From contig NC_007181.1 of assembly GCF_000012285.1 (NCBI RefSeq), positions 1,740,001-1,772,000 of the forward strand: a stretch of DNA of 32,000 bases, in the 5' to 3' direction. The notes under the pieces are model-generated. The model ran no database searches. It had not been told where the DNA came from and was given only the letters and a program-made list of their open reading frames with translations. This DNA comes from Sulfolobus acidocaldarius DSM 639. Lineage in GTDB: Archaea; Thermoproteota; Thermoprotei_A; Sulfolobales; Sulfolobaceae. The position numbers were made by a program, and so were the translations under genes. Shown one piece after another: positions 24,570 through 24,877 of the stretch (position 1 is its first letter; every line of letters begins with the position of its first letter).

Positions 24570-24877
24570 TTTGAGGGAGGGAAGCCCACAAGGGCATTTG
24601 GCGTACGTATATGTGTCCCTCCCTCTCAACACATATCCCCGAGTCCCAAGGAGGGTGGAGTGAGGGCTCCTACACCCAAGGGATATGGGTAAAGTGGGCT
24701 AAGACCAGCCCAGTGGTCTACCGCTGGACGAGTGGAGCGGGGTGGGTGCTTAATGCATCCACTAGCTATGAAGCGATGAGAGTGAAGGCGGTAAACCATA
24801 AACTAATGAACCGTCCTAAGGGAACCCTCGCCATTTATGGCGGGGAGGAGGTCAGCTAGAGAATAAGACTAGCTTTT
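24570..24877 (+). ncRNA. GC-rich structured island: candidate ncRNA or non-autonomous IS200/IS605 derivative
   Basis: 61 G+C in 24641-24740 by hand count, against AT-rich flanks. At least 8 perfect local helices. It ends in a hairpin plus TTTT. The only ORF is W/G-rich and implausible as coding. Strand was assigned from the T-tracts. Confidence 0.4.
24811..24877 (+). repeat. Copy B of the dispersed hairpin-GAGGAGG element (full-length type)
   Basis: CCTCGCC-atttat-GGCGGGG, then GAGGAGGTCAGCTAGAGAATAAGACTAGCTTTT. Confidence 0.55.

Follow-up and report, generated by a model that had tools for sequence, protein, structure and literature searches.

A probable non-autonomous IS200/IS605-family element that carries a TnpB omega-RNA scaffold and no nuclease gene in Sulfolobus acidocaldarius

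Within a 32,000-nucleotide stretch of the Sulfolobus acidocaldarius genome (the window, to which all positions refer unless stated otherwise), a first-pass annotation made from the sequence alone singled out a GC-rich block at 24570-24877 as either an unclassified stable RNA or a gene-less transposon derivative. We report here that this block overlaps a 355-bp unit (24501-24855) that is very likely a non-autonomous derivative of the insertion sequence (IS) family IS200/IS605, similar to PATEs and to MITEs (miniature transposable elements with inverted repeats). The composition of the block is conspicuous; a recount of 24641-24740 gave exactly the 61 G+C per 100 nt that had been claimed, the sliding G+C profile reaches its maximum (0.63) at 24650-24749, and G+C over 24570-24877 is 0.536 as compared to 0.397 over the whole window, with AT-rich flanks of approximately 0.28-0.39 to the left (23500-24499) and 0.29-0.46 to the right (24900-25399). 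All ten helices previously listed for the block were found in place, including a perfect 10-bp helix (24573-24582/24616-24625) and the perfect 8-bp pairing that competes with it (24609-24616/24629-24636), an 8-bp helix with one G-U pair (24742-24749/24755-24762), and a helix of 5+3 bp with a 3-nt bulge between its parts (24653-24660/24667-24677); TTTT directly follows the helix 24854-24859/24869-24874 on its 3' side. The predicted RNA fold of 24564-24880 had an energy of -127.2 kcal/mol, as compared to -106.3 +/- 6.0 kcal/mol for dinucleotide shuffles (z = -3.48), and was matched by 0 of 100 shuffles. The open reading frame (ORF) of 82 aa that had been noted in the block was confirmed as well.

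High G+C, dense helices, and a z of -3.5 could also be expected of an independent, unclassified structured RNA gene (e.g., resembling RNase P RNA, signal recognition particle (SRP) RNA, or a riboswitch) that looks like a transposon by chance. A search of the whole window at Rfam gathering thresholds returned no match to any family. RNase P RNA and SRP RNA matched neither at these thresholds in the window nor at E <= 10 in a permissive scan that covered 24300-25300, and the RNase P P4 motif (GAGGAAAGTCC), previously reported as absent from the block, was found nowhere in the window. The sole significant sub-threshold matches were to two families, HgcC (RF00062; 24746-24868, 34 bits vs. a threshold of 50, E = 6.5e-6 in the 1-kb search, model positions 1-130 covered) and sot0042 (RF02656; 24631-24846, 26.7 bits vs. 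a threshold of 88, model positions 1-174 covered). Both are linked to TnpB; sot0042 is one of the "sense overlapping transcripts" that IS1341-type tnpB genes have at their 3' ends, and HgcC, together with a PATE-derived RNA, has been linked to a tetraloop at the transposon right end (PMC4615843). L093, a full-length relative that is described below, was also below threshold for both families (41.1 bits for HgcC and 31.9 bits for sot0042), and the curated Rfam cut-offs thus miss this scaffold class. With no family at threshold, with TnpB-linked families as the only significant sub-threshold matches, and with homology to tnpB 3' ends along the entire sequence, the proposal of an unclassified stable RNA is not supported, and an independent RNA gene is contradicted and, in our view, scarcely credible.

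RNAs that arise from the 3' end of tnpB genes are now named omega-RNAs. Close matches to 24631-24855 were found in full-length tnpB elements of hot-spring archaea and viruses; in blastn comparisons, the stretch was approximately 80% identical to the loci L093, L015, L058, and L060, and the same 225 nt were 81-83% identical to annotated TnpB genes of Sulfolobus monocaudavirus SMV1 and of two Sulfolobales plasmids. In the full-length matches (L093, L015, SMV1, and the two plasmids), 24631 is the first aligned position, and 24855 is the last one in nearly every alignment. In L093, the match covers the final 220 nt of an ORF of 445 aa, with the stop codon inside a hairpin loop, and the 82-aa ORF of the window aligns in the same reading frame with the C-terminal end of TnpB from L093 (E = 3e-20, with 56% identity across 68 aa); the TAG in the hairpin loop is TAT in the window, and the 82-aa frame thus continues a few codons further. 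This ORF has no Pfam match, and its exact sequence is annotated as "transposase [Sulfolobus acidocaldarius]", and as it is the sole ORF, the element contains no functional transposase or nuclease gene. The SMV1 gene, on the other side, sits alongside an IS200 OrfA within an annotated 1791-bp "IS element-IS200-605" (OrfA + OrfB), and this annotated combination of tnpA and tnpB indicates that an autonomous form exists in this family.

The ends of the element were defined by comparison with these relatives and with the short forms described further below, and they differ from the limits of the block as first proposed, which had left the left-end hairpin at 24516-24535 outside. For the right end, a scan with the terminal hairpin pattern, using one genome per species, found at least 120 loci, drawn from many hyperthermophilic archaea, among which conservation runs from CCTCGCC to GGCGGGGAGGAGG and then TCAG in almost all; a few loci end in TCAA, TCAC, TTAG, or CCAG, and beyond that point sequences are unrelated. 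Similarity to tnpB elements likewise ends exactly at ...GAGGAGGTCAG, i.e., at 24855, and 24856-24877 is thus flanking DNA outside the element, where it may provide a guide and a terminator. Membership in a dispersed hairpin-GAGGAGG family, previously claimed for the last ~65 nt of the block, was confirmed for the last ~35 nt. On the left, L093 shows, in order upstream of tnpB, TGAC, a flank of ~15 nt, the hairpin CCTCGCC..GGCGGGG, TAAAG with an A/T-rich stretch, and a small hairpin; the left end of SMV1 is ordered like that of L093, and 24497-24630 shows the same order. Both subterminal hairpins are common to L093 and to the SMV1 tnpA+tnpB element, and a GGGGTAAAG-TTTTTAA block is kept directly 3' of the left-end hairpin in full-length and short elements alike, where the A/T-rich stretch may represent the element's own BRE/TATA-like promoter.

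Each of the 19 short forms has TGAC at a distance of 13-19 nt on the 5' side of its left-end hairpin, with unrelated preceding sequence among copies, and TGAC is present likewise in a second S. acidocaldarius copy, in L093, and in the SMV1 element. Under IS200/IS605 family rules, TGAC would represent the target and hence the transposon-adjacent motif (TAM); the alignment alone also allows it to be the first 4 nt of the element, and the SMV1 record annotates TGAC within the element. A 46-nt likeness between 24444-24489 and 23149-23194 was considered as an extended left end and rejected; no other locus shares this similarity and the copies diverge at TGAC, which places 24444-24489 outside the element. 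The 355-bp element (Table 1) thus combines a left end, comprising a TnpA-type subterminal hairpin, the A/T-rich promoter-like block, and a 5' stem-loop, with the final ~225 nt of an element, and tnpA and nearly all of tnpB are gone.

Table 1. Features of the 355-bp element and its immediate flanks (window positions)
Feature	Position	Strand	Remarks
TGAC, conserved target / candidate TAM	24497..24500	+	directly 5' of the left end
Left end: 15-nt 5' flank AAAGCGAAAGACAAG (24501-24515) and subterminal hairpin	24501..24535	+	near-identical in L093, SMV1, and all short forms
Left-end hairpin CCTCGCC-TTTTAA-GGCGGGG	24516..24535	+	stem identical to that of the right-end hairpin
A/T-rich stretch, beginning TAAAGGTTTTTTAG (24536-24550)	24536..24572	+	candidate BRE/TATA-like promoter
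Long 53-nt 5' stem-loop GAGGGAGGGA / TCCCTCCCTC with inner GCCC/GGGC hairpin	24573..24625	+	10-bp perfect stem
82-aa ORF	24611..24859	+	TnpB C-terminal remnant, no independent gene
Complete TnpB omega-RNA scaffold, ending ...GGCGGGGAGGAGGTCAG at the transposon right end	24629..24855	+	~80% identical to tnpB-element 3' ends
Circular-RNA isoforms	24683..24803	+	PMC12558985 coordinates minus 1,740,000 (offset inferred)
Right-end subterminal hairpin CCTCGCC-ATTTAT-GGCGGGG (24826-24845) and 10-nt tail AGGAGGTCAG	24826..24855	+	final base is the boundary
Flanking DNA with putative omega-RNA guide CTAGAGAATAAGACTAGC, then TTTT	24856..24877	+	copies diverge here

The same layout recurs elsewhere. A metagenome scan with a scaffold motif (TGAAGGCGGTAAACYAYAAAC, window 24783-24803) identified at least 120 loci, and the distance from the nearest left-end hairpin upstream to this motif was bimodal among the matches listed; 26 of the 44 classifiable hot-spring metagenome elements were long (1305-1722 nt) and mostly had long ORFs (up to ~460 aa), and 18 of the 44 represented a short, "guide-only" form (234-267 nt) without a long ORF, with a distance of 267 nt for the window. 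The ~1700-nt class fits the tnpA+tnpB layout seen in SMV1. The short forms and the window copy can be aligned over the whole stretch between TGAC and GGTCAG, and their flanks are unrelated. The scaffold motif was also searched for in viral contigs, with no match. A second copy is present in the S. acidocaldarius genome (L243, 2867-3230, 364 bp) and was found through a 70-aa paralogue of the TnpB remnant. This copy lies between other flanking sequences, aaTGAC to its left and ACCCCTAGGC to its right, and has an ORF with a different start and a stop in the hairpin loop. Its long 5' stem-loop is retained, and the stem shows compensatory changes (GTAGAGGG/CCCTCTAC as compared to GAGGGAGGG/CCCTCCCTC in the window); two metagenome short forms (L157 and L208) share the long stem-loop with another stem, TGTGCGGGG/CCCCGCAC.

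These data also bear on the possibility of a simple pseudogene, i.e., the decayed 3' end of a full-length tnpB that formerly stood at this site, without a left end of its own or a separate life. The 82-aa remnant annotated as a transposase and the label "Partial IS200/IS605" that an ISfinder-based annotation gives to the locus are consistent with such an origin, and the first-pass annotation had named a simply decayed tnpB end, detectable by tblastx, as the outcome that would speak against its own proposal. Descent from a tnpB 3' end is indeed evident at the protein level; however, the block is part of a discrete unit with both transposon ends present. A complete left end (TGAC, flank, hairpin, and promoter-like block) is located 130 nt 5' of the start of homology, 18 metagenome loci show the same short layout within a narrow size range and amid unrelated flanks, and both the junction and the unusually long stem-loop are found again in the second copy of this genome. 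Random decay would not produce one architecture again and again. We thus regard a simple pseudogene as quite unlikely. Deletion between direct repeats was considered as the origin of the short form and rejected as a general mechanism; L093 has a 32-nt direct repeat (tacatayccccgagtccc.ggga.ctgggagc) at 4990-5021 (left end) and 6195-6226 (scaffold start), and apart from L093 the longest such match among the 29 long elements compared is 15 nt (L140/L168).

Conservation of the RNA structure was assessed with an alignment of 35 non-redundant scaffolds, full-length and short, for which the RNAalifold consensus plus a variable hairpin comprised 51 pairs. In this alignment, 95.1% of the cells are paired, as compared to 36-53% when the partners are slid by 1-3 columns, and compensatory changes on both sides were found at 11 pairs (60 cells), as compared to 2-7 pairs (3-12 cells) after sliding. 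Covariation is strongest at columns 32-38/50-59, which correspond to the bulged helix at 24653-24660/24667-24677; most other scaffold helices are invariant and hence neutral as evidence for or against. Of these 51 pairs, the window copy is able to form 46 (41-51 in the other sequences, typically 47-48). A covariance model built from these sequences (R1), for which the window copy was among the 35 training sequences, matches the window copy over positions 1-221 of 221 with 207 bits and the second copy with 226 bits. The structure of the omega-RNA scaffold is thus conserved, as supported by covariation, the check that the first-pass annotation had proposed. Together with the hairpins, the TGAC...GGTCAG bounds, the tnpB homology, and the recurrence of the unit, this finding supports the suggestion of a non-autonomous IS200/IS605 derivative, of the PATE/SMN1 type, with an omega-RNA-like scaffold.

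A 2025 reanalysis of RNase R RNA-seq data for S. acidocaldarius provides a catalogue of circular RNAs (circRNAs; PMC12558985, Table S3). Three of these, circRNA_4575, circRNA_4577, and circRNA_4583 (NC_007181.1, 1764683-1764803, 1764700-1764800, and 1764718-1764794, + strand), are supported by 136, 14, and 13 reads, respectively, and carry the label "Partial IS200/IS605"; an offset of 1,740,000 places them in the scaffold (Table 1). The same offset puts circRNA_4537 (NC_007181.1, 1752057-1752218, - strand), reported as sense to the TnpB gene SACI_RS09365 (PMC12558985), at 12057-12218 (-), the 3' end of the only tnpB in the window (12082-13335, -). Since the position, strand, and label fit for both features, we accepted this mapping, which is still inferred. 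The circRNA data thus placed indicate a sense-strand stable RNA within the scaffold and do not give primary transcript ends. No circRNA was reported for the second copy in these data, and the supplements of PMC5961385 and PMC12817955 contained no usable transcript evidence for the locus.

Several observations weigh against the proposed non-autonomous element with its omega-RNA. S. acidocaldarius is absent from the best 120 of 493 relatives of the cognate-type TnpB (70-100% identity), whose sources are Saccharolobus, Sulfurisphaera, Metallosphaera, Acidilobus, Caldivirga, Vulcanisaeta, Desulfurococcus, Thermofilum, and SMV1, and the sole S. acidocaldarius proteins that resemble the remnant are the two remnants themselves. 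Cognate-type TnpBs such as those of SMV1 and S. islandicus share 81-87% identity with the protein of L093. No TnpA came to light in this host, in which no search aimed at tnpA was made. A near-invariant CUGAAG reads CUAAG in the window, and this loss of a G weakens the predicted long-range CUGA/UCAG pairing. Placement of the circRNAs depends on the inferred offset, and the circles span only the middle of the scaffold, with the guide excluded. Promoter, transcript ends, guide use, and mobilisation in trans, finally, are putative. Within the limits of the best 120 of 493 relatives, and with no scan of the entire genome, the omega-RNA of the window appears to be an orphan in its host, and this copy of the element is, given that no cognate TnpB was found, most likely an immobile orphan that is still transcribed.

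An orphan omega-RNA could have been kept and expressed, partly in circular form, through an acquired role of its own, either as a regulatory or decoy RNA or as a guide for a distant TnpB of the host; we give this a slim chance. In favor of a domesticated host non-coding RNA, for which the scaffold would be kept in linear or circular form for a host function independent of TnpB and transposition, the scaffold is well preserved though no cognate nuclease was found, the locus is unchanged across the S. acidocaldarius assemblies examined, and its 136 circRNA reads are the most among IS-associated loci in the PMC12558985 data; in Halobacterium, overexpression of a PATE-derived RNA improved growth (PMC4615843). 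By contrast, conservation within the species says little, as S. acidocaldarius strains are so alike, the damage to CUGAAG and the lack of a reported circRNA for the second copy count against domestication, and no target was found for the guide, which has no second match within the window. We thus consider domestication improbable and favor a non-autonomous element whose partners are missing from the host as far as the comparison extends.

Two TnpB genes closer at hand were evaluated as relatives of the element and rejected. ISC1476 was considered as the cognate family; a truncated "ISC1476-like" TnpB gene of 331-344 aa that lacks the C-terminal domain (L243, 3213-4244, -) is located tail to tail with the second copy, and joining the flanks of that copy fails to restore it. 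P0017, an intact relative of this truncated TnpB, shares just 39% identity with the cognate-type TnpB, has a C-terminus unlike the 82-aa remnant, and has a 3' RNA of its own that scores 23.6 bits against model R1; by these sequence comparisons ISC1476 is a neighbouring family and not the partner. With regard to the window's own tnpB, the short strings that the element had been noted to share with 12072-12230 are present, but kinship is not supported, as only such strings are common, the TnpB of the window is only 25% identical to the cognate type, and the 3' end of this tnpB was matched neither by model R1 nor by Rfam. This gene, in the region 12057-13335 (-), encodes a 417-aa TnpB and appears to be SACI_RS09365/Saci_1941, for whose 3' end circRNAs and processing sites have been published. 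The element to which it belongs likewise terminates in ...GATAGTCAG (12061), but without the hairpin-GAGGAGG motif.

The steps by which an element of this kind would operate can be proposed from the established model of IS200/IS605 and TnpB (PMC10055086). A Y1 TnpA acting in trans would recognise both hairpins, excise the unit, and insert it 3' of TGAC. A promoter in the left end would drive an RNA of ~300 nt, from about 24573 to the T-run at 24874-24877, comprising, in this order, the stem-loop, the scaffold, and a guide of ~20 nt that corresponds to the flank. Where a cognate TnpB is present, this RNA would be loaded onto it in trans, and the guided TnpB might then cut the emptied site (TGAC + CTAGAGAATAAG...), with recombination restoring the element.

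A number of further observations concern hairpins of the same type and the surroundings of the element. Solo hairpins of ~45-50 nt occur in many of the at least 120 loci (e.g., L009, L012, L013, L021, L007, L066, and L069) and are made up of a left-end-type flank (TTACAACTGAAAG or TGAT+AAAAGAAAAGACAAA), the hairpin, and the right-end tail AGGAGGTCAG; they look like minimal fusions of left and right ends. A degenerate solo hairpin, cttacaaagtgaggaaag-CCTCACCATTTATGGTGGTGAGGAGG, is located at 16725-16775. The terminal hairpin with GAGGAGGTCA was also found in L054, a Candidatus Obscuribacterales metagenome-assembled genome (MAG) in which it adjoins a 426-aa ORF, and in L077 and L120, which are Halobacteriaceae MAGs; unless these bins are contaminated, the right-end motif thus ranges well beyond thermophilic archaea. 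L243 contains a further hairpin-GAGGAGGTCAG element at 330-553 (21 bits). The intergenic region 23148-23499 ends in GCGAGGAGGAGGTCAG (23484-23499) and probably represents a right end, now decayed, that belonged to another scaffold class; 23446-23501 is 81% similar to sites in L145 and L163, and the left part of the region is weakly similar to 24444-24489. Two small toxin-antitoxin-like pairs are located downstream of the element, at 25335-25995 and 26204-26810, one comprising a PIN-domain protein and an 82-aa upstream ORF and the other a PIN protein and a MazE/AbrB-like antitoxin. Finally, the ORF 14145-14933 contains a tandem array with a 21-nt period (14193-14694), which comprises about 12 registers and includes copies that are 100% identical.

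The locus is already labelled as a partial IS and its RNA is already included in Table S3 of PMC12558985. No new category is opened by these findings; PATEs have been described as often encoding omega-RNAs that require TnpB in trans (PMC10055086), and the concept has thus been published as well. Our data account for a conspicuous GC-rich block between genes, and for an 82-aa ORF wrongly annotated as a "transposase", by a gene-less transposon with a guide scaffold as its only cargo, and they supply exact bounds, a candidate TAM (TGAC), and a covariation-backed structure for a widespread archaeal class of TnpB guide RNAs. For genome editing, TnpB/omega-RNA pairs that are thermostable and have a defined scaffold end are available from this class, and the short form represents a natural example of a guide RNA parted from its nuclease.

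The ends of IS608 and ISDra2 are characterized by subterminal hairpins, a short conserved target that precedes the left end, cleavage of the right end ~10 nt 3' of its hairpin, and the absence of inverted repeats and of target duplication. The element described here has similar ends, with a predicted right-end cleavage point at this distance, but differs in its left-end distance (15 nt, as compared to 19 nt in IS608) and in its putative target (TGAC, as compared to TTAC or TTGAT). As in RNAs described as TnpB omega-RNA, reRNA, or sotRNA, the scaffold overlaps a tnpB 3' end and stops at the right end, and the guide would be derived from the flank. The HgcC consensus shares with the window scaffold a terminal hairpin followed by GAGGAGGUCAG; unlike sot0042 and HgcC, however, this scaffold is below both gathering thresholds and stands without a gene. 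SMN1, a 320-bp Sulfolobus MITE mobilised by ISC1733, is, compared by description only, of similar size, also from Sulfolobales, gene-less, and dependent on the IS200/IS605/IS607 group (PMC3718332). The autonomous relative in the present case is the 1791-bp SMV1 element with its IS200-type OrfA. Among the closest parallels are PATEs, i.e., minimal non-autonomous IS200/IS605 elements (Meers et al. 2023 preprint, PMC10055086; see also the PATE-derived RNA VNG_R0052 in Halobacterium, PMC4615843), which likewise have no protein gene, retain an omega-RNA scaffold, and share subterminal hairpins at both ends with relatives that bear tnpA and tnpB; PATEs are transcribed and require TnpA and TnpB in trans, as is probably also true of the element described here. 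As compared to haloarchaeal PATEs with fused ends, the element of the window is larger (355 bp, with a promoter-like stretch, a 5' stem-loop, and the full scaffold), and it differs from PATEs in being crenarchaeal and thermoacidophilic, in its left-boundary motif TGAC, and in a host in which no cognate TnpB was detected.

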